A stretch of 64,000 bases of DNA. Origin: a virus. The notes beneath the pieces are model-generated. The model saw nothing but the letters and a program-made list of their open reading frames with translations, made no database searches and was not told where the DNA came from. The position numbers and the translations under genes were made by a program. Numbering within the stretch: position 1 is the stretch's first letter; every line of letters begins with the position of its first letter. The stretch is taken from positions 1 through 64,000 of IMG/VR virus record IMGVR_UViG_3300027905_000001. The stretch is one strand, 5' to 3'. Of this stretch, positions 21,859 to 61,054 are shown one piece after another.

Positions 21859-21971
21859 GATTTGCAGATGGCACCGGCCAGCACCCGGTGTAATGCACTA
21901 GCAGGCGTCCAAAGTCGCCGCAAATGCATCCCGACAGCTCGCAAGGAACGGGGAAAAGGAGGTCAGGACAG

Positions 21972-22919: not shown

Positions 22920-23013
22920 TTGCAGAGGATTAGGAGCCTAAAAACTCCTAATAATGCGCTAGGCAAGCGGTTCCAAGCCCGCGCCAATCGCAATTTTGAA
23001 AGGTGGAGCAATC

Positions 23014-32216: not shown

Positions 32217-32735
32217 TTAATTGATATAATTTGACATTAATTTTGCCCCGGCTTCTTGTACGACCTTAACCGCTTGTTCAAGTTCTTTATATACTCCTAG
32301 CCCTATCTGTTTTCGATTAATCATTAAGTAGGCTCGCCATTTTTTGGATGATTTGCGCCAACTAACGCCCCTAAATCCTGAATTAGTTTTGCATTCTGCT
32401 TTTCTATTTTGCATGTTTACTGAATGAGTTACATTTCTAAGATTCCCTTTTGTATTATTTAATGTGTCATGGTCAACGTGATCTACCACTAAATCATCGG
32501 GGCAATTGGTTATTAATCGATGTAGGCGTTTTGGTTTCAATCCTTCGCTAATCGACACATTACTTATGGCATAAAACGAACTTGTCCCTTCAGACCAAAG
32601 AGCATGCCACTTTGCACCACCTTTTTGGGCTATCTCTAAATCCTCCCTATCAATTAAAGTTTCCATCACAGATCCATCTTCTCTATCTAAAAATATTGCC
32701 ACTTTATCCCCTCTAAATTCGAATCTGTTTTTCAT
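32217..32735 (-). CDS. HNH homing endonuclease with AP2-type DNA-binding domain
   Basis: HRLI...DHVDHDTLNNTKGNLR (HNH) and SGFRGVSWRKSSKKWRAYLMINRKQIGLGVYKELEQA (AP2-like). Confidence 0.75.
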   Translation of the reverse strand: MKNRFEFRGDKVAIFLDREDGSVMETLIDREDLEIAQKGGAKWHALWSEGTSSFYAISNVSISEGLKPKRLHRLITNCPDDLVVDHVDHDTLNNTKGNLRNVTHSVNMQNRKAECKTNSGFRGVSWRKSSKKWRAYLMINRKQIGLGVYKELEQAVKVVQEAGAKLMSNYIN

Positions 32736-32783
32736 ATTCTCACCTCCTTTTCTTATCTATATTATACCATAAGCTTACCTAAG

Positions 32784-32812
32784 TTGCACTAAGGTTAAGC
32801 ATGGTATATAAT
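32784..32812 (+). promoter_or_regulatory. Consensus sigma-A promoter (TTGCAC-17-TATAAT) with flanking inverted repeat TATACCAT/ATGGTATA
   Basis: -35 32784-32789, -10 32807-32812; IR arms at 32763-32770 and 32801-32808. Confidence 0.6.
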
Positions 32813-32830
32813 ATAATTCGAGGTGAGGAA

Positions 32831-32992
32831 ATGGGAGATTTAAAAAACAGGCAAAGATATACAACTTCCTTGGATAATGAGCTAGTGGAAAAGCTCAAAA
32901 AGTTATCAGAGAAGACGAAAATTGCCCAATCAAAGTTACTGGATGAAGCAATAGAATTAGTTCTTAAGAAATATGGGAAGCCTGATAAGTAA
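32831..32992 (+). CDS. Ribbon-helix-helix (CopG-like) DNA-binding protein, paralogue of 38993..39172
   Basis: GAGGTGAGGAA RBS then ATG 32831; RQRYTTSLDNELVEKLKKLSEKTKIAQSKLLDEAIELVLKKYG. Confidence 0.6.
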   Translation: MGDLKNRQRYTTSLDNELVEKLKKLSEKTKIAQSKLLDEAIELVLKKYGKPDK

Positions 32993-33031
32993 GGGTTTCC
33001 CTTCCTTTCTGGTATTTAATTAGAATGATTA

Positions 33032-33446
33032 TCAAAAAGGAATGTCATCATCTAAGGAAACTCCGTGACCAAATGAGCCTTTAGCCTCACTTGAGCTATT
33101 CGAGGATTCCGATAAGTTGCTATTCTTCGGGCTAAGGAATTCCACTTCGTCGGCAATCACGTCGTATGACCTTTTTTTTATTGCCATCCTTATCCGTGTA
33201 ATCACTAATCTGTAGCGACCCTGTGACAAGGGCCTTATTTCCTTTTGCTAATGCGTTTGCACATAGCTCTGCAAGCTGTTTAAAACATTTCACGTTAATA
33301 AAATCTGTCTCTTTCTCGCCTGCGGAATTCTTAAACCTTCGCCCGACCGCTAGTGTGAAGTTGGAAATAGCAACGCCCGAAGTTCCATAGCGTAACTCAC
33401 AATCCCTCGTTAAATTCCCTGACAAAATAATCTTATTCATGCTCAC
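33032..33446 (-). pseudogene. ssb: Single-stranded DNA-binding protein gene interrupted by a frame change in an A8 run (33172-33179)
   Basis: N-terminal OB-fold frame 33132..33446; C-terminal frame 33032..33229 ends in acidic tail DDDIPF; one fewer A restores a ~137-aa SSB. Confidence 0.75.
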
Positions 33447-36961: not shown

Positions 36962-37471
36962 CTAATCTTTTTTTGTCCTGTGGTCAAAATCTTTGGCAAA
37001 TAATAAATGATCTACCGTCATGCCTAAAATCCTAGATACTGTAGCCTCGCCGTAATCTCCTAATCTTTCTTCAAGTGGTTTGGGGTAGTAGTTCGTCGTA
37101 AACCCCGTCAATAGATTGGCGCGATACCTTAGATCAATCAGCCGGTAATACATCGCTTGCACCCATTCTGTGGGTTTTTCCTTGCCGACATCGTCCAAGA
37201 TCAGAGCTTGAGCCTTGGCTAAAGTTTCAATCTTTGCCTCCATGCCACTTTCGTTTTTCCTGAACTGAGCATCCCTTAACTCTGCAAGTAAGTCGGCAGA
37301 CGATACAAACACAACCTGCACCCCTTTATCAAGCATGTCCTTGGCGATAATGCTGGCTAACATCGTTTTCCCTACTCCTGGATTTCCGAGCAATAAAAAC
37401 CCTTTGGCGTCCGATTCACTTTTGATTAATTCAGGCCATAGCTTTAAGTAATTAATTACACCCTTGTGCAT
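36962..37471 (-). CDS. DnaC/IstB-like helicase-loader ATPase (N-terminus probably longer; frame open upstream to about 37730)
   Basis: Walker A GNPGVGKT, Walker B LILDDVG; upstream 87 in-frame codons lack a canonical start. Confidence 0.7.
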   Translation of the reverse strand: MHKGVINYLKLWPELIKSESDAKGFLLLGNPGVGKTMLASIIAKDMLDKGVQVVFVSSADLLAELRDAQFRKNESGMEAKIETLAKAQALILDDVGKEKPTEWVQAMYYRLIDLRYRANLLTGFTTNYYPKPLEERLGDYGEATVSRILGMTVDHLLFAKDFDHRTKKD

Positions 37472-37730
37472 GTTTCGGTTTCCGTCGTTGACTTTATAAT
37501 TAGCAAGGCTGTATCTGAGCTGTTGAGATGTTAGCCCGGATGATTTTAGTTTTCTGGCCGCGTTCTTCTTAATCTTACAAACACACTCCTTGTAAAGCGT
37601 TAGTCCGTATAAGTCTTTTTCATCAGTGGCAACTATCTCCCGATCTTCACAATCAGAGCAGTTATATTTCTTTTCGACAGGTTTTAAACTGTATCCAGAT
37701 GTTCCAGTGTTGAAAAGGTTAAGTCTGTTC

Positions 37731-38651
37731 CTAACTTCTTCCTCTGAGGATTTCGGAGAGTATGGGGTCCGTTTCCCAAGGTTTAGAATCTCCTTGATCG
37801 ATTGAATTGCTTCCAGTTTTGTTACCTCCCTTGGCTTTTAAGTTCTTGCCCCATTTAACACAATTTCCCAGCCACGTATTAATCTGTGATCTTGGTTTAC
37901 TTTTTACATCAAGCGGCTTATCTAGTTTGTCGAAAGACCAGTCCTTAATCGCTCCCAAGATATCTATGGTTGGGTATCGTTCTTGAAGCTCTCGGTACAT
38001 TTTCAATTCCTTCGCCCTGTCAATCGGATAATCCTTAACTTTTTCAAGTGTGCGAATTAGGTCTATTTCATCAGGCAGAAGAATGAGATCATTTTCTTTT
38101 CTTTCTTTTACTTCCTTTCCTTTACTATTCTCTTCTTTAGGGATTTCTGTAGGAAATAATCCATCTTCAAGAGGATTAATGTCTACATTAACTACAGATG
38201 GTAGGTTGTTACCGTCAACATAAACCATATTTACAGTAAAATTATCAGTTTGCTTAGGTGGAGAAATAAGTAGATATTCAGATATGAGCGTTATCTCTTT
38301 GCGTCTTTCTACAGATTTGAAGTATCTTTTTTGGATTCCTCCGCTAGTAAGTATTTCGTATTTTAGATACAAGGATGAATTGAAAAATTCCCACTTAATG
38401 CAATCAGAAACTATCTCGGTGATAATATTAATGTCTACATTAACCTTACTGGAGAGTAGTAATTGTTCGCGCTCTGTCCATTTATAGAAATATCCTTCCT
38501 TATATATTTTCATAAGAAGTTTGATTAAAACCGCAAATCCAGTGATCTTATGCTTTGCTTCAATAAGCAAAACTTTGTCGTCTTGGTCCATGTCAATATC
38601 GAGGGGAAAATAATCCAATCCCTCTTTTTGCGGTCTTGCCAAGTCATTCAC
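37731..38651 (-). CDS. Phage replisome organiser (DnaD-like, Lin1244/Lin1753-type N-terminal domain)
   Basis: 306 aa; N-terminal FPLDIDMDQDDKVLLIEAKHKITGFAVLIKLLMKIYKEGYFYKW. Confidence 0.65.
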   Translation of the reverse strand: MNDLARPQKEGLDYFPLDIDMDQDDKVLLIEAKHKITGFAVLIKLLMKIYKEGYFYKWTEREQLLLSSKVNVDINIITEIVSDCIKWEFFNSSLYLKYEILTSGGIQKRYFKSVERRKEITLISEYLLISPPKQTDNFTVNMVYVDGNNLPSVVNVDINPLEDGLFPTEIPKEENSKGKEVKERKENDLILLPDEIDLIRTLEKVKDYPIDRAKELKMYRELQERYPTIDILGAIKDWSFDKLDKPLDVKSKPRSQINTWLGNCVKWGKNLKAKGGNKTGSNSIDQGDSKPWETDPILSEILRGRS

Positions 38652-38862
38652 CTTCCACTAAAGAAAAAATATCATCATATGGAATATCAAGCTCCTCAGC
38701 TATCTTCTTGGCTGTAGCAGGACTAGGGTTGAATCTGCCCTTTTCGATTGCATAAATACTTTCCTTGGACACTCCAACCTTCTTGGCTAAATCTGCAATT
38801 GACACGCCTTTTCTTATCCTTAACTCCGCTAATTTAGCTCGGTCGGTTTTAATTTTTAACAC
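38644..38862 (-). CDS. XRE-family helix-turn-helix transcriptional regulator
   Basis: 72 aa; LRIRKGVSIADLAKKVGVSKESIYAIEKGRFNPS (Cro/CI-type HTH). Confidence 0.75.
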   Translation of the reverse strand: MLKIKTDRAKLAELRIRKGVSIADLAKKVGVSKESIYAIEKGRFNPSPATAKKIAEELDIPYDDIFSLVEGE

Positions 38863-38942
38863 TTACTTACCTCCGTTTCCTTAATCATCCTACTTATACA
38901 TTATAACATATACTTGTACAAGTAACAATCAATAGGTATAAA

Positions 38943-38979
38943 TTGAAATAACTTTGTGTAGACTGTATAATACAAAGTT
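38943..38979 (+). promoter_or_regulatory. Consensus sigma-A promoter (TTGAAA-17-TATAAT) bracketed by 8-bp inverted repeat AACTTTGT/ACAAAGTT
   Basis: -35 38943-38948, -10 38966-38971; IR arms 38950-38957 and 38972-38979 flank the -10. Confidence 0.6.
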
Positions 38980-38992
38980 GGGAGGAGATATT

Positions 38993-39172
38993 ATGACTGG
39001 CGAATTAAGAAATAGAGAACGTTTTGGCGCTGCTTATGATAAAGATTTACTGGCCGGATTACGCAAATTATCAAAAGATACACGAATTCCAGCCAGTAAG
39101 TTGATTGATGAGGCGTTAGAGGATTTATTGAAAAAATATGGAGTTGAGGTGAAGAGAGAAAGCCAGGAGTGA
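38993..39172 (+). CDS. Ribbon-helix-helix (CopG-like) DNA-binding protein, paralogue of 32831..32992
   Basis: GGGAGGAG RBS then ATG 38993; RERFGAAYDKDLLAGLRKLSKDTRIPASKLIDEALEDLLKKYG. Confidence 0.6.
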   Translation: MTGELRNRERFGAAYDKDLLAGLRKLSKDTRIPASKLIDEALEDLLKKYGVEVKRESQE

Positions 39173-39213
39173 TTCCCTGGCTATTTTTTTACTCCCAATA
39201 CATCTGACTTTTC

Positions 39214-40440
39214 TTACTCGACCCCTATTCTAGCCCTTGCAATACCCGCATAAGCTTTTTCTTTGTCAATTCCGATAAAATGGCAACCTACACCCTTTGC
39301 GGCCAATGCGGTTGTGCCTGATCCAATAAAGGGGTCTAGCACCGTACCGCCTTGAGGTGTGACAAGTTTAATTAAGTACTTCATGAGATCAAGGGGCTTT
39401 ACGGTAGGGTGATTATTACCTTCGCCCCGTTCCCTCTTGGAGGCCTTAGCACAATAAAAGAATCTACTTGCCCCTCCCGAATCGCCATAACTAATCATTT
39501 CCGTTCCCTCTGGACGACTTTCTCTTGCGTAAGCATTAGCCTGATAACCTTTACTTGATACTCCCTTTTTAGCTCCAGTTCCACTTTTCAGTATGCCTGT
39601 TTGCTCATCCAGAACTGCAGCTGCTACTTCATCAAAAATTATGTTTGCGGGAAATCTTCCCAATGGATTACTTTGGCTTTCTGTTAAGTTGGTTCCCTTT
39701 CCGTTTCCATATACTGTATTTGGTGTACGTGGTGGTCTACCTCTATCGTCATTGGTCCCTATTCGGCTATCGTTGATATTGATCCCACCTGTTCCCCATT
39801 TAAGAACATTAGCCGCCACTGTCTTTTCGCTTAATGGTTTTCTGGCAACTACAATAGGTTCATGCGCAGGTTTTAGAGCCGTACCCCAACCGTCCCATTG
39901 CTTTGCTTCATCAGTTTGAGCATCTAGATCGAATGTTCCACCCAACTCATACGATGCTGGCCTATCTCCCTGCTCTAAATGGATGTTATTGAAACCCATC
40001 CCTTGCTGCTGAAAATTAGTCTTTTCCAGCTTGCAGTAATCCTTTGTATTAGCTGACCCGTAAAGCAGTTTACCTTCAATACCCTTGGCAATGTTGTAAG
40101 ACTTAGGGAATCCACTGCCATAAATCCACATGATCTGATCCCTGATCTCGAATCCAGCGTCTTCAATAGCACAAGCCATTCGGTGGTATGTTCTGCTCCC
40201 ACCGAAGGATAGTAGATATCCCCCAGGCTTTAGTACACGTAAAAATTCTTTCCACATTGCAACGTTGTAGGCAATTCCGGTATTGTCCCAAGACTTCCCC
40301 ATGAATCCCAATTCATAAGGCGCATCCGTTACGCCAGAATCTATACTATTTGCGGGTATTCCCTTCATAACTTCCAGGCAGTCACCTAAAATAATTGAAT
40401 CAAGCAAACTTTTACCCCTCCCTTTACTCAGCCTGTCCAC
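39214..40440 (-). CDS. DNA amino-methyltransferase (N6-adenine or N4-cytosine, beta-class motif order)
   Basis: 408 aa; DAPY catalytic-type motif near N-terminus, AdoMet motif VLDPFIGSGTT near C-terminus; no cognate nuclease adjacent. Confidence 0.75.
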   Translation of the reverse strand: MDRLSKGRGKSLLDSIILGDCLEVMKGIPANSIDSGVTDAPYELGFMGKSWDNTGIAYNVAMWKEFLRVLKPGGYLLSFGGSRTYHRMACAIEDAGFEIRDQIMWIYGSGFPKSYNIAKGIEGKLLYGSANTKDYCKLEKTNFQQQGMGFNNIHLEQGDRPASYELGGTFDLDAQTDEAKQWDGWGTALKPAHEPIVVARKPLSEKTVAANVLKWGTGGININDSRIGTNDDRGRPPRTPNTVYGNGKGTNLTESQSNPLGRFPANIIFDEVAAAVLDEQTGILKSGTGAKKGVSSKGYQANAYARESRPEGTEMISYGDSGGASRFFYCAKASKRERGEGNNHPTVKPLDLMKYLIKLVTPQGGTVLDPFIGSGTTALAAKGVGCHFIGIDKEKAYAGIARARIGVE

Positions 40441-40523: not shown

Positions 40524-40892
40524 TTATTCTATGAACCATTTACCGTACTTTAATTTTTGTCTAGTTACCGTCCATGTTCGCTCATTATCCTGCAAGCACT
40601 GATTGTCGGTATCCCTACCACGATAAGTACTTTTATCATTACCGCTCAATGTAACTATGACAGTTTTACCTTCGATCCATGCCGAAAGAGCTTCTTGCCA
40701 AGTGACTTCTTGAGGCACCGGCTCCCAATCCTCATCAAATAGCAGCTGTGTAGGCTCGTCGGTTGATCCTTGTCTCTGGAGCCTCTTGAATGAATTAAAG
40801 AAATATATTTCCCCGTTCTTCATCCTTTTATAAGGAGTTATTGCTTCTGGATTATTTAAGGCAAGTGTATATAATTCTCCAGTTTTAAGCAT
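40524..40892 (-). CDS. Hypothetical protein (122 aa)
   Basis: ORF track frame. Confidence 0.45.
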   Translation of the reverse strand: MLKTGELYTLALNNPEAITPYKRMKNGEIYFFNSFKRLQRQGSTDEPTQLLFDEDWEPVPQEVTWQEALSAWIEGKTVIVTLSGNDKSTYRGRDTDNQCLQDNERTWTVTRQKLKYGKWFIE

Positions 40893-40924: not shown

Positions 40925-41571
40925 CTAAATGTAATCATTCACGTTTTTCCTAAACAATCCACCCATACTCTTCTGCCATACTGACTTATTATTTTTGCCA
41001 ATTTCCTGCTTGGTCATGACAGGTTTTGTCGCTGCTTCGAGTTCTGGCATGCCGGATTTTATTCTGGCGTTGAAGCATTTCCTTGAGATGTTATTGGATT
41101 GTGCGAGTTGGATGTAGCTCGTGGTCATAAGGCGCATCTCTTGGAAAATCTAGTATCAATTGGAGTAGTGGCTGCTATTTCGGCGCTCCATCCCCTGCCC
41201 ATTCTGGTAACAAAAGTACCCTTTGATATTCCGTTTCTCACAGCTATGTCCTCATATTCCTTGGGATATTTGCGCTTCTTTTCAGCCATGATCTTAATGA
41301 TCGTATCTCGCTCAATAGAAGGTATCTCTGACGCTTCTTTAGGTGACATGCCCCCTCTCGTTACGCGAGAATAAAACAATGACCTGCTTATGCCGTTTCG
41401 TTCTGCTATGATTAGCCATTCACCCCATTTGTGGTAGTTGACAGGGGTTGTTATAGCTCGCTCAATACTCCACGCTAGGTCACGCACTCTTGCTGTGACT
41501 ACTCTTTCGTTGATGCCATTTTGTGCCGCCATAGCATACTTGTCAGGATTGATATAGAAGGAGTAAGACAT
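40925..41571 (-). pseudogene. HTH-repeat protein (four NGIS-type repeats) split by a frame change at an A4/T4 run (41143-41146)
   Basis: Repeats 1-3 in 41125..41571, repeat 4 in 40925..41137; one extra T on the coding strand joins them. Confidence 0.5.
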
Positions 41572-41986: not shown

Positions 41987-42731
41987 TTAAAAAGGATAAA
42001 GTTCTAGTGGAATATTTCTTCCAGCCTCCGCGATTACAACAATTTTTCCTGTCAACTCTTCGATTTCTCTAACCATTCTTTCTGCGTTGGAATTGCTGTC
42101 TGATAAATGAAGTAGCACTATCTTCTTCACTTGCGACAAATCATTAGCTCGCAAAAACTCTTTGACATGCTCAAGTGAAAAATGGCTTTCGAGTAGTCGG
42201 TTTTTCATGCTTTGGGGGATGTAGCCAGCTTCAATGTTTGCGTCAAGGGTATCTTTGCAGTAGTTTGATTCTACAAGGATATAATTTAGTGAATTAAAAC
42301 GATTGCGAATATAGTAGGTATCCGTACAAAAAATAAGTTTTTCGCTGGTTGGTTTGTATTGAATTAGGTAGCCGAAAGGCTGATCGCAATCATGTTGAGT
42401 GTCGAACGGTAAAACGATGAAATCTCCAACTTGAAACTGTACGCCAGCGTCAACCATTTGTGTTCTGTGGCTCTGAGATATGCCTATTTGCTTGGCTGTT
42501 CCGGAAGAGGTATAAATATCTACACCCGCCTTAATAACGTCCTTTGCGCTTCGTGAATGGTCAAAGATGTTCGTGGGTTATTAGGCACCCACGGATACGA
42601 GATAGATTAAAATCTAGGGATTGTTGTATTTTTTTAAAAGAAACTCCACATTCAATTAAAAGAGAACCGGTGTCGCTTTCTAAAACATAGCCATTTGCCC
42701 TTGATGACGAACTGATAACCTTGAGGTGCAT
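41987..42731 (-). pseudogene. MBL-fold metallo-hydrolase gene with frame change inside the HxHxDH motif; 5' end overlaps the HNH gene 3' end
   Basis: N-terminal frame MHLKVISSSSRANGYVLESDTGSLLIECG...ITHEHL then stop; C-terminal frame FDHSRSAKDV... (41987..42457); removing one T at 42563-42565 gives THEHLDHS. Confidence 0.65.
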
Positions 42732-43300
42732 TGTACTTTCCCCTTTCTCTCTTTAAATCTCCAAATGAATCCTCCAGCTTGTTTCCTAGTTAATCCTGGT
42801 TTGTATTCTGTCTCGCTTGCAACTTGAAGAATGTTCCTTCCGCATACTCCAGTTAACCTAAAGGCCTCTTGAGCGTTGGGATATTCGGCTAGTAGCTCGC
42901 CATTTAGGTTGTATTGTTGAATGGCATTAGGTCTTATGAATTTGTTGTATTTATTCATTCCTTTTAGCATGTTTGGATGAATAGATATTGCATGGATAAC
43001 ATTTTCGCTCCCAGATACCCACTCTAGGTTTTCAACCTTGTTGTTTTGCTTATTGCCATCCTTGTGATTTATCTGAGGCTTATTATTGACGTTGGCTATA
43101 AAAGCTTCAGCAACAAGTTTGTGAATTCTCGCATACCTTACACGTCCTTTATGAGTAAGGACTACGGAAAGATAATCCTTTTTACTGTTTTTATTAGACA
43201 AGATAAACCCTTCCCTTAATTTCTTGAAGCTTTTCAACCTACCCTTGGTTGATATTTGATATACACCCTCAAATCCCTCAATATCTTTCCATAGTTCCAA
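42680..43300 (-). CDS. HNH homing endonuclease with NUMOD4-type N-terminus
   Basis: WKDIEGFEGVYQIS...GRL (NUMOD4-like) and HKDGNKQNNKVENLEW (HNH). Confidence 0.75.
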   Translation of the reverse strand: MELWKDIEGFEGVYQISTKGRLKSFKKLREGFILSNKNSKKDYLSVVLTHKGRVRYARIHKLVAEAFIANVNNKPQINHKDGNKQNNKVENLEWVSGSENVIHAISIHPNMLKGMNKYNKFIRPNAIQQYNLNGELLAEYPNAQEAFRLTGVCGRNILQVASETEYKPGLTRKQAGGFIWRFKERKGKVQCTSRLSVRHQGQMAMF

Positions 43301-52985: not shown

Positions 52986-53345
52986 ATGGAAATGAGGAAA
53001 ATATTTATGATTATCGGTATGGGCAGTAGAATTAGAGTTCTTCGACTTGAACGAGGGTTAACACAGGACCAAATGGCATATAAACTGGACATGAATCGTG
53101 CGAATTTCTCACATTACGAAAGAGACACATCTTCCCCACCGTGCGAAGTTCTGGTCAAAATAGCTGATATTTTAAATACAACTACAGATTTCCTTCTTGG
53201 ACGCACAGATACTAATCCACCCGATGCTGCAACAATCAAACAACTACAAGGAATTAATGAATTACCGCAAGACAAGAGAAGATTTGTAATAAATATAATA
53301 AATTCGATTATTTCAGAAATAATCGAAGAGGCTAAGGAGGAATAG
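52986..53345 (+). CDS. CI-like XRE-family repressor (probable start at ATG 53007)
   Basis: N-terminal HTH (LERGLTQDQMAYKLDMNRANFSHYE); start of integrase gene follows immediately. Confidence 0.7.
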   Translation: MEMRKIFMIIGMGSRIRVLRLERGLTQDQMAYKLDMNRANFSHYERDTSSPPCEVLVKIADILNTTTDFLLGRTDTNPPDAATIKQLQGINELPQDKRRFVINIINSIISEIIEEAKEE

Positions 53346-53347
53346 GT

Positions 53348-54826
53348 ATGCATGGAATACTATACCTGCGCAAAAGCAGAGAAGATGAGCAATATGAAAA
53401 AAATACTGGCGAAGATGTTCTGCAAACCCATCGCGAACGTTTGGTTATGCTCTGTAAGTCGCGGGAAATTACCTTCGACGAACGCGCAGAGGTACGAAGC
53501 GGTGATACGATCGCAGGTCGGCCTAAATTTCAGAATATACTAGATACGGATCTCCCCTCTGGTCAATACTCTTGTATCATTGTTACTGAAATTTCTCGAC
53601 TTGGCAGAGGGGACATGGAGGATGCAGGAAGAATATACAAAACCATAATCCACAACGAGATTAAGATTGTCACGCCGAATAAAATATATGATCCGTTAAA
53701 CCCTTCCGATCTTCGCCAGCTAAGGTTCGAGCTATTCATGTCTCGGGAGGAATACGAAAGCATTAAGGAAAGACTATGGAATAATAGAAATTACCGGGCA
53801 ACACAAGGTTATGCCGGCAATTATATTGTCACGCTCGGTTTTCGCCAGTCCAGGGGGATAGTCGAGATAATCCCCGAAGAGGAAAAATTAGTGCTTGAAA
53901 TATTTACGATGCGCTCTGAAAATTACTCCTATCAAGAAATAGCGGATTACTTTAATTCCAGAAATTTAAAGACAAAACGCGGAACAAAGTATCATGAATC
54001 TACAATATATAAGATATTAAAAAATCCCAGGTATATAGGAGTGGCTAAGTGGCAAGGCAAGGAATATATAGCTAAGCACCCTGCGATAGTCTCATTGGAC
54101 CTATGGAACTCTGCGCAGGATATCAACGCTGAAAGACATCACAAGAGACGAGGGTCAAAAAACGATAACCCTTATCTAGTAGAGCTATACTGTCGAGAAT
54201 GCGGGCAAAGGATGTACGGGGAACGCTCTACCCCGCAAAGGGTAATAGATGGTGTTCGAAAGCTATATAAAAGCAGAGACATCTATATTTGTAGGGGCAG
54301 AAAAAGCATCCCTAAATGTTGGCACCACATAGGAGCCAGCGTTGTTCACTCGACCATCCTTGATGAGCTTGGGAAGATAATATCAGATCCGCAGATTTTT
54401 CTTGAGTTAGTCAACGAGAGAGAATCAAGACTTGGCGTCGATACTAATGGTTTATCAGATCAAGTGGATGAATTAAATAAGCAAGTCAAGGATAAAAACA
54501 TCCTTTTGGTAAAAATAGAGAACGATTATGAAAAAGGCGACCTATCCGCTTTGCTATATACTAAACACGTTGAAAAAATATCCAAAGAAATAGCATCTAT
54601 TGAAGGTAGGATAAAAAAAATTAAGGCCGATTTATTAAAATCAGCCATTAAGATTAGTCCTCCTATGGAATTACAATCAATTTTGAAAACATTCCTAAAT
54701 AACTGGAACGCCTATCCTAATAGTGACAAGAAGCTCATCATTAGATCATTTCTTCCCAGGGTTGAGGTGAACAAGCAGGGTGAATTCTTTATCGCTATTA
54801 CTTTGCCTGATTCTATCGAAATTTAG
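53348..54826 (+). CDS. Large serine recombinase (prophage integrase)
   Basis: 492 aa; N-terminal resolvase-type catalytic region (YLRKSRED), recombinase domain, Cys-containing zinc ribbon, coiled-coil C-terminus. Confidence 0.85.
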   Translation: MHGILYLRKSREDEQYEKNTGEDVLQTHRERLVMLCKSREITFDERAEVRSGDTIAGRPKFQNILDTDLPSGQYSCIIVTEISRLGRGDMEDAGRIYKTIIHNEIKIVTPNKIYDPLNPSDLRQLRFELFMSREEYESIKERLWNNRNYRATQGYAGNYIVTLGFRQSRGIVEIIPEEEKLVLEIFTMRSENYSYQEIADYFNSRNLKTKRGTKYHESTIYKILKNPRYIGVAKWQGKEYIAKHPAIVSLDLWNSAQDINAERHHKRRGSKNDNPYLVELYCRECGQRMYGERSTPQRVIDGVRKLYKSRDIYICRGRKSIPKCWHHIGASVVHSTILDELGKIISDPQIFLELVNERESRLGVDTNGLSDQVDELNKQVKDKNILLVKIENDYEKGDLSALLYTKHVEKISKEIASIEGRIKKIKADLLKSAIKISPPMELQSILKTFLNNWNAYPNSDKKLIIRSFLPRVEVNKQGEFFIAITLPDSIEI

Positions 54827-55145: not shown

Positions 55146-55555
55146 GATAATATCAAGTATTTTTTCAGTCGGAATATTTTTTTCAATATCTATATCCTCA
55201 TCTCCTGCCTGAATTTATGTTTTACCAGTCTCTATATACTAGAACGTGTGTTCTTAATTTTCAAGGGGTAATTTGTCGCAAAAGAAATAAATCGTTTCTC
55301 TTCCCCTTTCTCTCGCTACCCGTAGGAACAAAGTCCTACAATCAGTCCTAGATATAATTCAGAATATTTATTTAAGTTATTGACAGTATACGCTATAACG
55401 TTTGTCGAAATCGCGTGAAATAAAGGAGGCCAAATGTGAATATTTTGTGATTATAAATTATACTTAAGTCTACATATTATAATACCTGCTACATTTTTGT
55501 GTTAGCAGGATTAATCCTATCCTCTGTGGAAGTATTTTCCTATGGTGGTGAGGCG

Positions 55556-55777
55556 ATGGATTTAGAAGATAAGTTAAAGGATAACAAAATACAATACATA
55601 CTAGACAAGCGTGATATGTCGCAAAAAGACCTTGCCGCAACGCTCGGGTGGTGGCCGAGTGACATAAGCGACATCGTTAACGGTAAGGTTAAGCGCCTTA
55701 CGCTCATTCGCGCTTCGATGATATCCGTTGCTCTCGGGTATTCGGTTGAGTATATTTGGCCTACTTTATTCAAGTAG
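55556..55777 (+). CDS. XRE-like HTH regulator (track start 55499)
   Basis: DKRDMSQKDLAATLGWWPSDISDIVNGKVKRLTLIRASMISVALG. Confidence 0.55.
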   Translation: MDLEDKLKDNKIQYILDKRDMSQKDLAATLGWWPSDISDIVNGKVKRLTLIRASMISVALGYSVEYIWPTLFK

Positions 55778-55914
55778 GCCAAATATTTTTTTATATTTTT
55801 TTAGTCATAAAATTAGACTTTCGTCTATATACTTTATCACACCCAGTAAGCCACCGTCACACCACGTCTTACACTATACTACGCCAGTCAGACAAAATTT
55901 TGAGAGGTGAGAAT

Positions 55915-56121
55915 GTGAAGAAAAGAAGAACTTTTTGGGACGGAGATGATCTTTGCTCAAAGCTAGACGCAATACCAGAAAATGAACTAAGTACCATAAT
56001 CCGCATGGCACTACGAGCATGGTTTAAGATCGACAGCAAGCCCGAACTAACCGTTACCGACGCAAGGCAGATAGCGCAGGAGCTGGTAAGGCAACGCAAA
56101 GTTGAAAGGAGCGAACGCTAA
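55915..56121 (+). CDS. Hypothetical small protein, GTG start (68 aa)
   Basis: GAGAGGTGAG RBS; ORF track frame 55756..56121 trimmed to the RBS-supported start. Confidence 0.4.
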   Translation: MKKRRTFWDGDDLCSKLDAIPENELSTIIRMALRAWFKIDSKPELTVTDARQIAQELVRQRKVERSER

Positions 56122-56281
56122 TGTTCTGGAAGAAATCCATTAAAGCCTCCAAACTCTCAGGGCTTATCAAGGAAATAGCTAAGGCGGCATCATTAGTACC
56201 TTATGGGGATGGCGCGCTGGACTTAGGTTGGGAGGAACTAACCGTCAGTGATCTACTCGAATGGATGGAGGAAAGTTTATA
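56121..56281 (+). CDS. Hypothetical small protein (52 aa), TAATG-coupled
   Basis: Not in ORF track; MFWKKSIKASKLSGLIKEIAKAAS...; start overlaps upstream stop. Confidence 0.35.
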
Positions 56282-56299
56282 GGAAGTGAGGTTGAAATA

Positions 56300-56527
56300 A
56301 TGGACATAACTAAAATCCAAAAAATCGTTCGCAAGGCTATCAAGGACTACGCCATTACCGCAAAGTACGATGAGGAAATTCTAGTATCATTTCTCAGCGT
56401 GGATATTTTCCGGGAGATCAACGAGGATTCCCCGGCACCTCTCTCGGATCCCAAGGCTCCCCCTCGCCGCAATACTAACCAGAATGCATTAGGTCTGGTA
56501 AATCACGAAGCAGGTGAAACGCCATGA
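56300..56527 (+). CDS. Hypothetical small protein (75 aa; track start 56261)
   Basis: GGAAGTGAGG RBS before ATG 56300; 3' end overlaps next gene (ATGA). Confidence 0.4.
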   Translation: MDITKIQKIVRKAIKDYAITAKYDEEILVSFLSVDIFREINEDSPAPLSDPKAPPRRNTNQNALGLVNHEAGETP

Positions 56528-57852
56528 GTGAAAAATCATCGTCCGTAAAGCCCGACCTGATCGGCTTGACATCCTCTACTCTGGTCAAACTTGGACGCTT
56601 TGCCCTACGTCATATCGGCAGTCCCAACAACTCCTATGCGAACAAGATAATGCTGAACTGGAAACGCAATGACATATGCACCGAAACCAAAGAGCGAGGC
56701 AAGGATTACACAGAGAAGAAATACCCTACGCTAGTGGAAAAGACAATGAAGGGTCATAATCGAGTACTTAGATACAAGATACCCACCGGTCTAAATCCGC
56801 AGAAAGTCATGAAATCCCTCTACGACATCGAGTTCGATCTCAAGTCAGAAGTCCTATTCAAGCGACTTGAGAACGATCCCAAAGCGCACTTCTCACTCAC
56901 TATCTTATCCGGCAAACTGTTAGACATTATCAACTACTCCAACGAGGCCAGTATTACTCCAGATGGCAAGGAGTTAAGCAAAGGTCTATGGATACCTCTA
57001 GGGTGGTCAAGAAGGGGCTTGGAACAACTTAATTTAGCCTCTAGCAACAGCCCTCATCTTATGATCGGAGGGGCTACAGGAGGCGGCAAGAGCATCCTTG
57101 GCAGGCTTATCCTTGCTACCCTCCATATCCGCTATAACCGTGATGAATGCCGACTATGGCTCTGTGACCTTAAACATGGCAACGGCACAGCAAGGCTAGG
57201 GAAAAACCCTCTCCTTGTAGATAGGACTATTTCTGATCCGGGCGAAGCAGAACAAATGATGGACGATCTCTCTGTGATTATTGGCGAGCGATATAATTTA
57301 TTTAAGGAGTATGAGTGCGACGATTTACAGGCGTTTAACGAGGAATATCCAAGATTGAGATTGCCGCGCATTGTGGTTTATGTGGATGAATTAACCAAAC
57401 TTGAGGGCAAGGAGTTCTCCAGGGCTCGTGAAAAGATGACTAAAGTCACGGGGGAATCCAGGGGTGCAGGAGTGCATGTTATTATCTCTTGTCACAGGCC
57501 CACAGCTAACCTTGTGTCCGGCACGATGAAGAACAATATCTCTGCCGTTGTCGCGTTTAATTGCAACGCTGTATCGGCTCGTGTGTTGCTTGGAGAAGAT
57601 CCGGAGGATTACAAGGCAGCCAGCATGATTGATCCAGATATCGAAGGTCGAGCATTGTTTAAATTTAAAGATGAGGTATTGCTGCAGGTCCCCTACATCG
57701 ACAACCATGCAATCAAGTCCCTTATGGCCAACTATCAAAAAGCGATAATTAAAGGTAAGGTCGAGCCAGTGATACAGGCTGTTATTTCCACTAGGGTGGT
57801 TGAGCACTCAGTCGGGCACTCACTCGGTCATACTATTGAGCACCCCCAGTGA
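56524..57852 (+). CDS. FtsK/SpoIIIE-family DNA translocase-like ATPase
   Basis: 442 aa; Walker A GGATGGGKS, Walker B-like VVYVDEL. Confidence 0.75.
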   Translation: MSEKSSSVKPDLIGLTSSTLVKLGRFALRHIGSPNNSYANKIMLNWKRNDICTETKERGKDYTEKKYPTLVEKTMKGHNRVLRYKIPTGLNPQKVMKSLYDIEFDLKSEVLFKRLENDPKAHFSLTILSGKLLDIINYSNEASITPDGKELSKGLWIPLGWSRRGLEQLNLASSNSPHLMIGGATGGGKSILGRLILATLHIRYNRDECRLWLCDLKHGNGTARLGKNPLLVDRTISDPGEAEQMMDDLSVIIGERYNLFKEYECDDLQAFNEEYPRLRLPRIVVYVDELTKLEGKEFSRAREKMTKVTGESRGAGVHVIISCHRPTANLVSGTMKNNISAVVAFNCNAVSARVLLGEDPEDYKAASMIDPDIEGRALFKFKDEVLLQVPYIDNHAIKSLMANYQKAIIKGKVEPVIQAVISTRVVEHSVGHSLGHTIEHPQ

Positions 57853-57966
57853 TTGTACTCAACGATTCAATGCGCTTTATAGGCTCCTTTGGTCATGCCG
57901 TGCGGTCCGTAAAGTGCTTTATTATCCTTACTTTTTTATTTTGTATTTATTTTATATTTTTGCGAG

Positions 57967-58605
57967 GTGAAAATTGTGAACTTAGTGGCATATGGCAAGC
58001 AACGAGACGAACGAATTATGGGGCTAGTAGGGCTTGGGACAGCCTTTACGCGAAGCCAAATAGAGCGAGTTATATTTAAGGGAAGTAAGCGTAAGGCTCA
58101 GACTAGACTGCAGGTGCTATCCGATTCAGGGCGACTAAAAAAGATTATCCGCAGTCCCCACGAACCAGCCATCTATTGCCTCAAAAAACCCCGAAATATC
58201 GATCATTATTTACTTATCAATGAAATCTATTGTGCCGTAATGTCTCAGAAAAAGTCTTGGCATATCGTCAAGTGGCAATGGTCATATCCAATTATGGAAG
58301 GTAAGATTTGGGCAGACGCAATGGTTGATATTTACGACCAACTCAATAAGCGTAGGCATGTTATATTTGTTGAGGTTGAGCGTTACGCAGACCGTAAGTT
58401 CGAGAAGGATAAAAAGTATTCAGCCATTACCAGCGCGAACTGGACGAAAGAAGAGTGGGCGATTAAGGAGCCTACAAGGATATTGTTCCCGGCAATCCTA
58501 GTTGTCACCGAATGCAAATTAGAGGTCAAAAGCGAGTTGGATTTCTTTGTTGCCACGATGGACCAAGTCAAAAAAGACATTTACTCTATTATCTTAAGGA
58601 GGTAA
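57967..58605 (+). CDS. Replication-relaxation-family-like protein (winged-helix N-terminus), tentative
   Basis: 212 aa; N-terminal LVGLGTAFTRSQIERVIF...RLQVLSDSGRLKKI; central VIFVEVERY. Confidence 0.45.
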   Translation: MKIVNLVAYGKQRDERIMGLVGLGTAFTRSQIERVIFKGSKRKAQTRLQVLSDSGRLKKIIRSPHEPAIYCLKKPRNIDHYLLINEIYCAVMSQKKSWHIVKWQWSYPIMEGKIWADAMVDIYDQLNKRRHVIFVEVERYADRKFEKDKKYSAITSANWTKEEWAIKEPTRILFPAILVVTECKLEVKSELDFFVATMDQVKKDIYSIILRR

Positions 58606-58609
58606 CACC

Positions 58610-58828
58610 ATGGGTAAACTAGGAAAAGTGACCACAAAGGCCACCTATGGAATCCTGAATCTGGCGATGAAACCTATTTACGATCAGATGAAAAAAGAGA
58701 GAAAAGAAGAAGTTAAAAGATGGAACAAATCGCTAGATATAGCTTCTCAGGATGCAATGGCCGAGGCTAGATATTTTGAAGTAAGGCAGCCGTTTGATTC
58801 GATTATCCACAAGCACCCATTGTGGTAG
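58610..58828 (+). CDS. Hypothetical small protein (72 aa)
   Basis: AGGAGG RBS then ATG 58610. Confidence 0.45.
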   Translation: MGKLGKVTTKATYGILNLAMKPIYDQMKKERKEEVKRWNKSLDIASQDAMAEARYFEVRQPFDSIIHKHPLW

Positions 58829-58848
58829 TAATGACAATAGTAATGACT

Positions 58849-58880
58849 TTTAGCCCCTTCGTAAACCGAGGGGCTATTTT
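58849..58880 (+). terminator. Rho-independent terminator
   Basis: TAGCCCCT ... AGGGGCTA stem followed by TTTTA. Confidence 0.55.
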
Positions 58881-59003
58881 AATGCCCTGACATAACGAAA
58901 CCCCAGCATTTGCCGGGGGTTAGTTTTTATTCTCTATTATTTATGGCTATTCGGATTATATGGTGGAAAATGAGTTTGGAATTTCCAGTTTTATAATAAA
59001 TAA

Positions 59004-59064
59004 TTACTACTATTATAGCGTTATCGCTTGACAAATTATAGCGATAACGCTATAATAGTAGTAA
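59004..59064 (+). promoter_or_regulatory. Consensus sigma-A promoter (TTGACA-17-TATAAT) embedded in a perfect 24-bp inverted repeat (operator-like)
   Basis: Arm 1 59004-59027 TTACTACTATTATAGCGTTATCGC; arm 2 59041-59064 exact reverse complement; -35 59028-59033; -10 59051-59056. Confidence 0.7.
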
Positions 59065-59124
59065 CAGCTAAAGATTACATGAACCCGACAGCCCATAAGG
59101 GGCGGGGCGAGAGGAGAATATAAA

Positions 59125-59985
59125 ATGGCAAATGAAGTCGTCAAGGAATACTACAAATGGGATGAAACAGGTGAAGCTTTTGGCATAAGTATAAGCTACG
59201 ATGCCGGAGATGACTGTGGTCCAGTTGCTGGGCTTAAACTAAGTGGTGGACAACCAAAAGAAGTCAACGGTCAAAATGTCGTTTGGTTCGAAAAAACAAC
59301 CAAAGGTCAGCCCGTCGCCATAAAGTATAACAGCCGTCCCGATTTAGCAGCCCTTGTGAACGAGTATAAAAAGTTTCAGGCTGAGCAACAAACAAGGCAT
59401 AATACCCGGGCTGCTGCACATCAAGCCGAGCGGGAAGCCATAGACAACCCTCTACTTGAGGACATGGAAGCAGAAGCTGTTGAATTGCGGAAAAAGATTC
59501 CGACCGGGCATATCGAGGTTGATGTCGAGGATAATGGCAATCTTGACGGCTATCCTAATTTAAAATACTCAGTAAACGGCGTTGAATTGCCTTGGGATAA
59601 GGTCAACCATATTGGCACTGCGAGTGCGATTCGCCCAGGCGCATTAGGTTCTTTTGCTCAAATTTATGTCGTATCTATCGCCAAGGATCAAATCGAACAA
59701 ATCAAAAAAGAGCAGGAAGAGAAATCGGCAATCAACCAAGCTAAAAAAGAGGCTTACCAAAGAGAATTAACTGGGACTATAATCCCTCCGGCGGCCTTAG
59801 AGGCTTACAACTATTACCACGGTGACGCAGAACTAGCATGGGAAAAAGAAGATGAATCCTCTTGGGCTCTTATTGAACGATGGACCACTTATATCGAGGC
59901 ACAACATGGGATTGCCCCTCGTAAATTACAGCACATGGTTTCGGAATCCGCGCGCGAAGAGAATTATGGGATCAATGAGGGTTAG
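59125..59985 (+). CDS. Hypothetical protein (286 aa) under the palindromic promoter
   Basis: GAGAGGAG RBS; no motif recognised. Confidence 0.55.
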   Translation: MANEVVKEYYKWDETGEAFGISISYDAGDDCGPVAGLKLSGGQPKEVNGQNVVWFEKTTKGQPVAIKYNSRPDLAALVNEYKKFQAEQQTRHNTRAAAHQAEREAIDNPLLEDMEAEAVELRKKIPTGHIEVDVEDNGNLDGYPNLKYSVNGVELPWDKVNHIGTASAIRPGALGSFAQIYVVSIAKDQIEQIKKEQEEKSAINQAKKEAYQRELTGTIIPPAALEAYNYYHGDAELAWEKEDESSWALIERWTTYIEAQHGIAPRKLQHMVSESAREENYGINEG

Positions 59986-60007
59986 TGGAGAGAGTGTTTG
60001 AAAAAAG

Positions 60008-60035
60008 AAAGAGCCGTAATCAATCGGCTCTTTCT
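60008..60035 (+). terminator. Hairpin terminator-like element
   Basis: AGAGCCG ... CGGCTCT stem followed by T-rich tract. Confidence 0.4.
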
Positions 60036-60077
60036 GGATAACTTTTTATTTCAATCCACGCCTTACGGCGACAATCC

Positions 60078-60106
60078 TTGATGGGATTTATTACCCATAA
60101 TATAAT
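60078..60106 (+). promoter_or_regulatory. Sigma-A-type promoter (TTGATG-17-TATAAT) with inverted repeat ATGGG/CCCAT in the spacer
   Basis: -35 60078-60083, -10 60101-60106. Confidence 0.5.
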
Positions 60107-60145
60107 CCAAATAGCAGTATATGTCAAGACTAAGGAGGGCATTTC

Positions 60146-60853
60146 GTGAAAAAGAAACATCGGTCTATTTCGCAGATACTTGATAGATCGAAATCTGCCG
60201 AATCAAGAAGAGCTATCACTATAAATTGGTCAAAGTCATGGGAAAATGAGACCATGGAACTCATACGTAACCTTGAACAGGCTGTAAGGGCCATGGATTA
60301 CGATCAGCTATGCATTAATACCAGGCAGCTTAAGGCGGTTACTCAAAAACGTTTTGGAGCCCTGCCAAATATATTTATGCACCTCACTAAGGCTGGTGCC
60401 GCAGAGAAAAACCCGGAAAAAGAACCCGAACCATTAGCCAATGCAGCTGTACAAGATATACACAAAAAGCAGGATGTCCCAAAAGAACCAGATGAGCCGA
60501 GCCATGCGGAGGAGCAGCATGTGCCCGGAATCTGCATAGACTGTGGTGTCAGTTTTAATGCTAAAACCAGCCGCCAAAAGCGGTGCCCCGAGTGCCAAGT
60601 TGAACACAACAAGGCGTTACGGTTAGCCGCGGCCAAGGCAACTCAAGATGTCAAAAGAGATAGGCCTCTTTTGGATATCATGGAGGGATACATTACGGTA
60701 AAAGAATGGGCGAGCAAGCACGGTAAGAGTCCGTCCAGCGCTCAGAATATATTGTCCAATTCCCCTACTCTTGTACCAGCTGCCAGAAAGGTGCGCAATC
60801 CTCGCGGCGGCGTGGATATCTGGGTCGTACCAAAAGAGACAATATGGCCTTAA
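60146..60853 (+). CDS. Hypothetical protein with C-terminal zinc ribbon (GTG start)
   Basis: 235 aa; CIDCG...CPECQ; TAAGGAGGG RBS. Confidence 0.5.
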   Translation: MKKKHRSISQILDRSKSAESRRAITINWSKSWENETMELIRNLEQAVRAMDYDQLCINTRQLKAVTQKRFGALPNIFMHLTKAGAAEKNPEKEPEPLANAAVQDIHKKQDVPKEPDEPSHAEEQHVPGICIDCGVSFNAKTSRQKRCPECQVEHNKALRLAAAKATQDVKRDRPLLDIMEGYITVKEWASKHGKSPSSAQNILSNSPTLVPAARKVRNPRGGVDIWVVPKETIWP

Positions 60854-60865
60854 TAAAATAAAGGA

Positions 60866-61054
60866 ATGATAGCGATGGAACTTAAAGACGTACTAACAGG
60901 TCCCGAAGCTGCGCAACTTTGGAGCATTGGAGAGTCAACAGTCCGCAATGCAGCTGCGGCGGGTAAATTCAACGAAGACGAAGCTCGAAGGGCAGGGAAA
61001 AACTGGCTAATCACCAGAGAAGGCATGAAAAGAGTATTTGGTGATCCTAACTAA
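60866..61054 (+). CDS. Small HTH DNA-binding protein (62 aa)
   Basis: LTGPEAAQLWSIGESTVRNAAAAGKF...WLITREGMKRVFG. Confidence 0.5.
   Translation: MIAMELKDVLTGPEAAQLWSIGESTVRNAAAAGKFNEDEARRAGKNWLITREGMKRVFGDPN

Follow-up and report, generated by a model that had tools for sequence, protein, structure and literature searches.

A candidate ribbon-helix-helix repressor cassette set against the leftward early operon of a Candidatus Desulfosporosinus infrequens prophage

The DNA considered here, called the window, comprises positions 1 to 64,000 of the IMG/VR virus record IMGVR_UViG_3300027905_000001 and is a prophage of Candidatus Desulfosporosinus infrequens. The gene in question encodes RHH-A, a small ribbon-helix-helix (RHH) protein (38993..39172, plus strand); a paralogue, RHH-B, is the product of 32831..32992 on the same strand. 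On balance, RHH-A is probably an Arc/CopG-type repressor carried on a cassette of about 295 bp, which is inserted backwards between leftward early blocks and gates the promoter of an XRE regulator and the replication genes, and its own promoter too. A preliminary description of the locus had linked RHH-A to the DNA methyltransferase gene beside it. Its target is most likely not this gene, and the replication genes on the other side are the favoured candidates.

According to the proposed mechanism, RHH-A dimers would bind the palindrome TACTTGTACAAGTA in the spacer and at the -35 of a leftward promoter, shutting off the XRE regulator together with the translationally coupled replication initiator and the loader genes behind it. 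Weaker binding at the half-sites AACTTTGT and ACAAAGTT, around the -10 and the start of its own promoter, would provide autoregulation. The cassette would offer separate control of a near-consensus internal promoter, most plausibly in the lysogen. Such a promoter would need control of its own, because the candidate CI/Cro operator of the phage was seen only at 52.5-53.0 kb. Expression of RHH-A in the lysogen is speculatively suggested by its orientation, which is the same as that of cI and int. The XRE protein may be an opposing, Cro-like partner, while the methyltransferase gene would simply be the last gene of the upstream block. The RHH-B cassette would do the same job for the next block, of which the first gene is an HNH homing endonuclease.

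Arc-like RHH genes have been noted beside TnpB, homing endonuclease and toxin-antitoxin genes (Zedaveinyte et al., PMC10690162). From chromatin immunoprecipitation sequencing (ChIP-seq), reporter assays and mutagenesis, Moon et al. (2026 preprint, bioRxiv 10.64898/2026.09.24.754181) report that Arc-like RHH proteins with genes divergent from tnpB bind to motifs covering the -35 and -10 of a bidirectional promoter, which they repress. The Arc proteins tested there were WP_094548610.1 and WP_003367503.1, with the contact residues N5/N7/T9. RHH-A falls within a widespread kind of phage and transposon regulator that has been recognised before. As the basic mechanism and the nuclease association are already in the literature, the present gain is in detail and scope, not in kind. 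In this prophage, the suspected target shifts from the methyltransferase to the replication module, and a second, CI-independent checkpoint on phage replication is predicted. The comparison further brings out a compact, highly regular cassette with sharp edges, the candidate operators of which change with three or four protein residues. Such cassettes may give Gram-positive synthetic biology a naturally occurring collection of mutually independent repressor/promoter pairs, and they may lend themselves well to work on what restrains homing endonucleases and TnpB in phage genomes. The regular portable architecture and the occurrence of two probably independent cassettes in one prophage are worth following.

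The RHH-A locus

The features of the locus are listed here in order of position.

36962-37471, minus strand: DnaC/IstB-like loader, in the replication module (36962..38651) behind the leftward promoter
37731-38651, minus strand: Lin1244_N / DnaD-like replication initiator, in the same module
38644..38862, minus strand: XRE/Cro-type helix-turn-helix (HTH) gene, 72 aa (HTH_3, E = 3e-16), divergent from RHH-A and first gene of the leftward operon
38900..38928, minus strand: leftward promoter toward the XRE gene, with -35 TTGTTA (38928-38923), a 17-nt spacer and the extended -10 TGtTATAAT (38908-38900)
38911..38924: 14-bp perfect palindrome TACTTGTACAAGTA in the leftward promoter spacer, touching its -35; proposed primary RHH-A operator
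38943..38971, plus strand: P(RHH-A), with -35 TTGAAA (38943-38948), a 17-nt spacer and -10 TATAAT (38966-38971)
38950..38957: left arm AACTTTGT of the inverted repeat flagged earlier, within the P(RHH-A) spacer
38972..38979: right arm ACAAAGTT of that repeat, over the predicted P(RHH-A) transcription start
38981..38985, plus strand: GGAGG ribosome-binding site of RHH-A, 7 nt 5' of the ATG, read from the sequence
38993..39172, plus strand: RHH-A coding sequence (CDS), ATG at 38993, 59 aa, Pfam RHH_3, phrog_3180 'Arc-like repressor'
39161..39190: hairpin over the RHH-A stop codon (stem-loop 39161-39182) and T7 run, between RHH-A and the methyltransferase gene
39214..40440, minus strand: N6/N4 DNA methyltransferase (N6_N4 domain, E = 5e-32), convergent neighbour of RHH-A, 41 nt off

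The preliminary description had placed RHH-A on the plus strand against the leftward operon, divergent from an XRE-type gene and convergent with an amino-methyltransferase gene, and the domain matches at 3e-16 and 5e-32 bear out this arrangement. The XRE gene shares 8 nt with the start of the replication initiator gene. The TTGAAA-17-TATAAT promoter described for RHH-A is likewise found at 38943..38971. It matches the consensus at 11 of 12 positions and is the best site in 32-41 kb; five sites of at least 11/12 occur in the 64-kb window, P(RHH-A) among them, where Markov simulations give about 1.6. The leftward promoter and P(RHH-A) are the two best sites in 9 kb and stand back to back. Moreover, the leftward promoter is the best-conserved stretch of the intergenic alignment with related loci (numbered L001 and onwards; the RHH-A locus of the window is window_A). 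The -10 hexamer of P(RHH-A) is kept in window_A, L001, L002, L018 and L019, and reads TATGAT in L079. On the plus strand, the stop-codon hairpin has a folding energy of -16.6 kcal/mol and is followed by U7, and RHH-A transcripts thus meet a strong terminator. With -15.3 kcal/mol and a poorer U tract (UUUCUCUCUU) on the minus strand, it is a weaker one for leftward methyltransferase transcripts.

The family assignment of both paralogues is clear. RHH-A matches the Pfam profile RHH_3 (PF12651) with E = 2e-16 and 60.1 bits (cut-off 21.6) over positions 1-43 of 44, and RHH-B matches it with E = 2e-20 and 72.8 bits. The PHROG 3180 profile 'Arc-like repressor' gives E = 4.1e-12 for RHH-A and 1.4e-16 for RHH-B. 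A small repressor-type RHH gene with a paralogue in the same prophage, as claimed earlier, is supported by both profiles, and the identity of about 50% estimated by eye comes to 52% over 48 aa (E = 2e-17) in a pairwise alignment. A protein recorded from Ca. Desulfosporosinus infrequens, on a 123-kb contig, is 100% identical to RHH-A. In the Pfam scan with a limit of E <= 0.1, RHH-A does not match the Arc family (PF03869), and its scores for RHH_1 (16.1 bits) and Antitox_RHH (14.9 bits) fall under the respective cut-offs of 20.5 and 27.2.

The AlphaFold2 monomer model of RHH-A (mean predicted local distance difference test score 77.5) has confident helices at residues 17-30 and 34-48. Residues 8-16 are coil, as is to be expected of a monomer when the ribbon takes shape only in the dimer. 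Foldseek returned CopG, StnY, SvtR and Arc as best matches, all at E > 3; the best of them is CopG (2cpg, 1ea4), with a root-mean-square deviation of about 1 A over 34 residues. The model is consistent with an RHH fold and does not prove it. Searching the sequences of solved structures with RHH-A yielded noise only, plus SvtR at E = 1. Furthermore, an Rfam scan gave no match at the RHH-A locus, and megablast of 30-45 kb against GenBank phages gave no match.

RHH domains are common in antitoxins and in centromere-binding proteins. It is nevertheless highly improbable that RHH-A acts as antitoxin in a toxin-antitoxin pair or as a ParG/omega-like centromere-binding protein. The sub-threshold Antitox_RHH match and a weak SoPB_HTH match of RHH-B point that way, but RHH-A is solitary between its own promoter and terminator, with no co-directional toxin or ParA gene, and most relatives are likewise solitary. 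Readings as toxin-antitoxin, partition or restriction-modification controller (C) protein were rejected, the gene being solitary, the protein of RHH and not HTH type, and no co-oriented restriction gene being found in the ORFs scanned.

Relatives and the divergent partner gene

The survey sample consisted of 61 viral-contig loci and 80 genome loci, and about 135 related loci were examined. Strands were assigned from the coverage by open reading frames (ORFs), which worked for AT-rich viral loci and returned 'mix' for most of the GC-richer genome loci. A third, profile-based homologue search gave more than 3134 RHH_3 proteins, of which 120 are listed. PF12651 is present in every homologue listed, and the close homologues of RHH-A are 63-84% identical to it.

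As far as gene order tells, RHH_3 genes are typically solitary and lie inverted in long phage operons of the opposite strand. Of 57 distinct viral and metagenome loci, 34 have both neighbours on the strand opposite to the RHH gene, and the gap from the RHH start to the start of the divergent gene is most often about 85-105 nt. Among 51 loci, the divergent neighbours are XRE HTH genes (11), PF01844-type HNH genes (10), I-HmuI-like genes with NUMOD4/HNH_3/NUMOD3 domains (10), TnpB (OrfB_IS605) genes (5-6), HNH_3+AP2 genes (2, one of them beside RHH-B of the window), LAGLIDADG (1) and GIY-YIG (1). About half of the divergent neighbours in the family are nucleases of the HNH, TnpB, LAGLIDADG or GIY-YIG type. 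Convergent neighbours form no cluster larger than three among 49 loci. From this comparison, the divergent gene would be the conserved functional partner of the RHH_3 gene. Since no convergent neighbour is conserved, the adjacency of the methyltransferase is taken as incidental.

Single relatives illustrate the arrangement. L001 has an inverted RHH gene facing away from a 72-aa XRE gene, behind which come Rep_O and DnaB, and the convergent gene is a DHH phosphoesterase. In L002 and L003, a 55-aa non-HTH ORF is divergent, followed by a primase-helicase, and a 48-aa ORF is convergent. Replication genes lie beyond the cassette in the window, L001, L002 and L019. The Bacillus phages IEBH and LY4 have an RHH_3 homologue divergent from a TnpB-type 'transposase'. 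At the other end of the gene, a hairpin with a T-run at the stop codon is found in 78 of 134 distinct loci, as against 2 of 134 shuffled controls; the stem begins within the CDS in 66 of these 78 loci, and 53 of the 78 terminators have an A-rich 5' flank.

A few further observations concern the wider family. One 53-kb Bacillus phage contig (IMGVR_UViG_2639762527_000001) carries two different RHH_3 genes (L034 and L062), each divergent from a TnpB-type gene of its own; multiple cassettes per genome therefore recur beyond this window. Genome contigs L079-L158 hold a large Oscillospiraceae/Clostridia clade with the N-terminus MAEPYLKYRTRFTSSLKNEL and another upstream motif, ACACTATATAGnCACTATTTGCAACCAATTG. 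The MAEPYLKYRTRFTSSLKNEL clade also has members in Serratia, Klebsiella and Sodalis, one location being plasmid pSR07_2 of Serratia fonticola. Another clade has the N-terminus MLVHR (L029, L038, L043, L047, L049, L051, L078, L117 and L137). Here the RHH gene is co-directional with its left flank, or with both flanks where scorable, and it is the small divergent XRE gene that is inverted; upstream there are repeated AACCTTATG motifs. The geometry is reversed, and the XRE/RHH pairing is kept.

Candidate operators

The sequence beside the promoters differs among the clades in a regular manner. In the commonest layout of the family, one hexamer, usually the palindromic TTGCAA, stands 17 nt from a TATAAT on each strand, and it would therefore serve as the -35 for both directions. 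This shared -35 layout is seen in 42 of 110 loci with a detected promoter; examples are L064 3905-3992, L034, L044 and, with TTGCAC, positions 32761-32812 of the window. As one -35 is shared, the two divergent promoters would not be occupied simultaneously. The RHH-A clade, characterised by the beta-strand RERFGAAYD, has an expanded layout with two separate -35 hexamers.

The 14 nt abutting the shared -35 are made up of two inverted heptads, often with a third heptad 10 nt further. In the register of this 14-mer, 117 of 189 positions are complementary, compared with 93 +/- 4.3 in column shuffles (0 of 2000 reach 117) and 21-81 in slid registers. Furthermore, the 14-mer varies with the beta-strand motif of the RHH protein: SNA goes with AACTACATGTAGTT (CTACATGTAG in short form), YTxS with AGCTTACGTAAGTT (CTTACGTAAG in short form), and GSA with AAGTGATACCACTT or AACTGATATCAGTT (GTGAT...CAC). 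Such covariation would be expected of a protein that reads the site beside its own gene.

At RHH-A, the palindrome TACTTGTACAAGTA is read as the primary candidate operator. Its 12-bp core ACTTGTACAAGT is perfect in L002, L003 and L079 and partial in L001, and its right half (ACAAG) is kept in all six clade-A loci. The palindrome accompanies RHH-A whether the XRE gene is present or not (as in L002, L003 and L079).

The inverted repeat singled out in the preliminary description fares differently. Its arms AACTTTGT and ACAAAGTT are indeed perfect complements, 14 nt apart, that enclose the -10 hexamer in a pattern unique in the window, and together with the 11/12 promoter they give RHH-A a strong promoter of its own with operator-like symmetry, as had been claimed. 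A perfect 8-nt inverted repeat with a gap of at most 30 nt, however, turns up in about 14% of composition-matched simulations of the 130-nt spacer. The repeat is therefore not significant on its own, and its meaning had to come from relatives. The left arm is semi-conserved: three of six clade-A loci (window_A, L001 and L019) have it as AAnTTTGT, and L018 has a closely similar form, AATTTATG. The right arm is not conserved in L001, L002, L018, L019 or L079 and is unique to this phage. As a conserved element, the repeat could not be upheld, being absent as such even in an 81%-identical relative. Both arms are one-base variants of the palindrome half-sites, and the four half-sites within 68 nt at RHH-A form the sole such cluster in 64 kb. 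Because the palindrome is conserved and the repeat is not, the former is taken as primary and the latter as a plausible lineage-specific candidate auto-operator.

Two further candidates were dropped. Copies of the palindrome were considered as a regulon signal; seven sites with at most two mismatches occur in the window against 2.3 expected, none is promoter-like, and the signal is not convincing. An outer TTATAC/GTATAA symmetry around the palindrome is absent in L002.

Palindromes of 12-14 bp are typical of the operators of HTH dimers such as Cro and C proteins. It could accordingly be asked whether the sites are swapped, so that an XRE dimer binds the 14-bp palindrome and autoregulates the replication operon, and RHH-A binds only the split repeat or elsewhere. 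This is rather unlikely, although it has several points in its favour: the length of the palindrome, the position of XRE as first gene under the leftward promoter, the recurrence of XRE/RHH pairs in 11 of 51 loci, and the degenerate left palindrome half in L018 and L019, which have the same RHH beta-strand and no XRE gene. On the other side, L002, L003 and L079 keep the perfect palindrome with a divergent gene that is not HTH. Moreover, nuclease-paired cassettes without XRE have an equivalent palindrome at the same position, covarying with the RHH beta-strand, and Arc-like proteins beside tnpB bind such promoter-embedded motifs.

Several points weigh against RHH-A as repressor of the replication promoter. 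L018 and L019 have the RHH-A beta-strand and only the right half of the palindrome. In simulations of AT-rich spacers, a 12-bp palindrome appears in 7.5% and an 8-nt inverted repeat in 14%. The half-site cluster is of limited weight, its motif having been defined with the sites already in view. The palindrome is assigned to RHH-A and not to the XRE protein by comparison, and its 12-14 bp would also suit an HTH dimer. Expression in the lysogen, which remains speculative, follows from gene orientation alone. Additionally, N5/N7/T9 occur in no protein of the set, and the Arc proteins tested by Moon et al. may belong to another RHH subfamily; among the 120 listed of more than 3134 RHH_3 proteins, there is no Petroclostridium or C. 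botulinum name.

The cassette as a discrete unit

Nucleotide similarity delimits a self-contained cassette of about 295 bp (38900..39194), with promoter pair, candidate operators, gene and terminator. The block matching relatives spans 38900-39194 of the window with L018, 38902-39193 with L019, 38888-39139 with L002 and 38900-39139 with L079, and it reaches over the XRE gene only in L001. The left edge of the shared block is the -10 hexamer of the leftward promoter, and the outward-facing promoter would therefore drive whatever gene adjoins. Two contigs of one metagenome hold a common 305-bp RHH cassette with 85.6% identity (L018 3897-4201 and L019 2659-2958), and the flanking genes are unrelated on both sides, one contig having an HNH gene and the other a DnaD-like gene. 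When viral contigs were scanned with the exact conserved intergenic core ACAAGTNNCAATCANTAGGTATAA, no match came up. Across the family, RHH_3 cassettes typically appear as units of about 300 bp, with back-to-back promoters, a putative clade-specific palindromic operator, the gene, and a terminator usually over the stop codon.

A broader reading, offered tentatively and rated as possible but somewhat short of even, regards RHH_3 cassettes as portable modules of about 300 bp that spread as units among Bacillota phages. Each would supply a repressor-gated outward promoter and a docking point for nucleases, and several independent cassettes would gate blocks of an early operon. The outward promoter would often be built on a single palindromic -35, TTGCAA, common to both directions, and unrelated selfish nucleases (HNH, I-HmuI-like, LAGLIDADG, GIY-YIG and TnpB) would repeatedly exploit it. 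The RHH-A and RHH-B cassettes of this prophage would then be an example of separately gated early blocks.

Conversely, the cassette might be mainly a boundary element, its terminator and convergent transcription insulating the early block from the replication block, with the protein as a minor autoregulator. This is improbable. The stop-codon hairpin is potentially bidirectional, the A-rich 5' flank of 53 of 78 family terminators would fit, and the cassettes stand at module borders (methyltransferase/replication genes, and SSB/next block). Against this, thousands of homologues show clear purifying selection on the protein, its helix residues being invariant, and covariation of the operator with DNA-reading residues would be unexpected for an incidental protein.

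The methyltransferase gene

The preliminary description had proposed a controller-like or antisense circuit acting on the neighbouring methyltransferase gene, which it called orphan. The two upstream ORFs scanned, 40524-40892 and 41125-41571, carry no restriction-enzyme domain, which bears out the term in part. The proximity of the two genes (convergent, 41 nt apart) favours control of the methyltransferase by RHH-A, either in the manner of a C protein or through convergent or antisense transcription. The poor U tract UUUCUCUCUU on the leftward face of the hairpin also means that methyltransferase transcripts might enter RHH-A antisense. Even so, such control is very unlikely. The convergent neighbour differs in nearly every relative, being DHH in L001, a 48-aa ORF in L002, and MazG, SSB or others elsewhere, and the similarity block stops at 39194, before the methyltransferase gene; the proposed link fails on both counts. 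Antisense action of RHH-A on the methyltransferase is not sustained either, as the RHH-A transcript first meets, and ends at, the strong terminator (-16.6 kcal/mol plus U7). Moreover, C proteins are of HTH type and share the orientation of a restriction gene, and the two ORFs scanned hold no restriction-enzyme domain. The idea of a controller beside a DNA-cutting enzyme stands for RHH-B, which is divergent from an HNH_3+AP2 gene, and for about half of the family; it does not stand for the methyltransferase.

The RHH-B cassette

The second cassette of the prophage has the following parts.

32217..32735, minus strand: HNH_3 + AP2 homing-type endonuclease, adjoining the left edge of the RHH-B cassette, behind the leftward promoter of that cassette
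32741..33043, plus strand: RHH-B cassette, as block shared with relatives
32761-32766: leftward -10
32772-32785: operator-like 14-mer AGCTTACCTAAGTT
32784-32789: shared -35, TTGCAC/GTGCAA
32789-32796: third half-site CTAAGGTT
32807-32812: rightward -10
32831-32992, plus strand: RHH-B CDS, with a weak hairpin at the stop codon

Among the relatives of RHH-B, the gene is inverted in every case; one neighbour is SSB, MazG or another gene, and the neighbour on the other side differs from lineage to lineage. The preliminary description had raised cross-regulation of the two paralogues as a point to check. Their beta-strand residues differ (RFGAAY versus RYTTSL), and their promoter regions have no operator-like sequence or half-sites in common; for these reasons, cross-regulation is judged unlikely. 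With a different candidate operator at RHH-B, the two cassettes are probably independent of each other.

Comparison with known systems

RHH-A most likely works like the tnpB-linked Arc-like proteins, P22 Arc/Mnt and CopG, as judged by analogy. With the IS605-family Arc proteins it has in common a very small RHH protein divergent from the gene it controls (here a putative target), a compact bidirectional promoter, and oppositely oriented motifs (here candidates) over the -35 and -10 hexamers. Homologues also occur beside homing endonucleases, and the RHH_3 genes of IEBH and LY4 are divergent from a TnpB-type gene. In contrast, the partner of RHH-A is an XRE regulator with phage replication genes and not tnpA/tnpB, and its cassette is not within an insertion sequence, although 5 of 51 relatives have OrfB_IS605/TnpB divergent.

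The immI region of P22 offers another parallel, with two paralogous RHH repressors in one temperate phage, divergent promoters with an operator between them (a candidate here), and a second control point apart from the CI-type switch. It differs in that RHH-A lacks a match to the Arc family PF03869. Furthermore, Arc and Mnt are adjacent and control the antirepressor, whereas the RHH-A and RHH-B cassettes are 6 kb apart and belong to different early blocks. CopG of plasmid pMV158 has the RHH fold, which is predicted for RHH-A, and is the best structural match, though at E > 3; it binds a pseudo-palindrome overlapping its promoter and limits the replication initiator. However, CopG is co-transcribed with repB and serves plasmid copy-number control, while RHH-A is divergent, and CopG belongs to another Pfam family (RHH-A scores 16.1 against the RHH_1 cut-off of 20.5).

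The Omega repressor of pSM19035 uses 7-bp operator units, direct and inverted, comparable to the two inverted heptads of RHH_3 cassettes with a third one 10 bp on. There is no sequence-family match to Omega, however, which acts on plasmid copy number, partition and toxin-antitoxin genes and has contiguous heptads. The C proteins of restriction-modification systems are also small autoregulated DNA-binding proteins (autoregulation being predicted here) beside genes of DNA-modifying or DNA-cutting enzymes. They differ in having an HTH fold, in being upstream of and co-oriented with the restriction gene, and in acting at C-boxes; none of this applies to RHH-A.

Prophage setting

The lysogeny module is located in the right part of the prophage and includes the following genes.

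52986-53345, plus strand: CI-like HTH gene
53348-54826, plus strand: serine integrase

A Cro-like gene and two pRha-type genes of the same module are leftward. From about 52.9 kb, nearly all genes are on the minus strand and run leftward down to the structural genes, in the order C5 methyltransferase, HNH gene, N6/N4 methyltransferase, replication genes, SSB, further genes and structural genes. This run is broken by two small plus-strand genes, RHH-A and RHH-B. The candidate CI/Cro operator ATATTAACG is found at 52561, 52659 and 52951, in or beside the intergenic region of the CI-like and Cro-like genes; two of these copies are exact pattern matches, and the third is a variant read by eye. It was not seen in the window outside 52.5-53.0 kb, nor at the RHH-A site, and the main CI/Cro switch is 14 kb from the RHH-A cassette.

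Three further observations concern other parts of the window. Two Twister-P5 ribozyme matches on the plus strand (21863-21919 and 22921-22982) score 39.7 and 44.1 bits, above the Rfam gathering score, and sit in a plus-strand block between the structural and early gene blocks. A metallo-beta-lactamase-like gene at 41987-42731 (minus strand) seems to be divided between two ORFs some 100 nt from each other, an N-terminal one of 56 aa (ending ...ITHEHL) and a C-terminal one of 156 aa, and adjoins a NUMOD4/HNH_3 endonuclease gene at 42680-43300 (minus strand). Its family was assigned by eye, with no Pfam match on record for its ORFs; a frameshift, a pseudogene or an interruption of the gene could each account for it. 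Finally, a second mobile-looking block lies to the right of the integrase, at about 55500-61000 on the plus strand; it contains an FtsK/SpoIIIE ATPase, a faint Replic_Relax match and small HTH genes, and resembles a small integrative or conjugative element.

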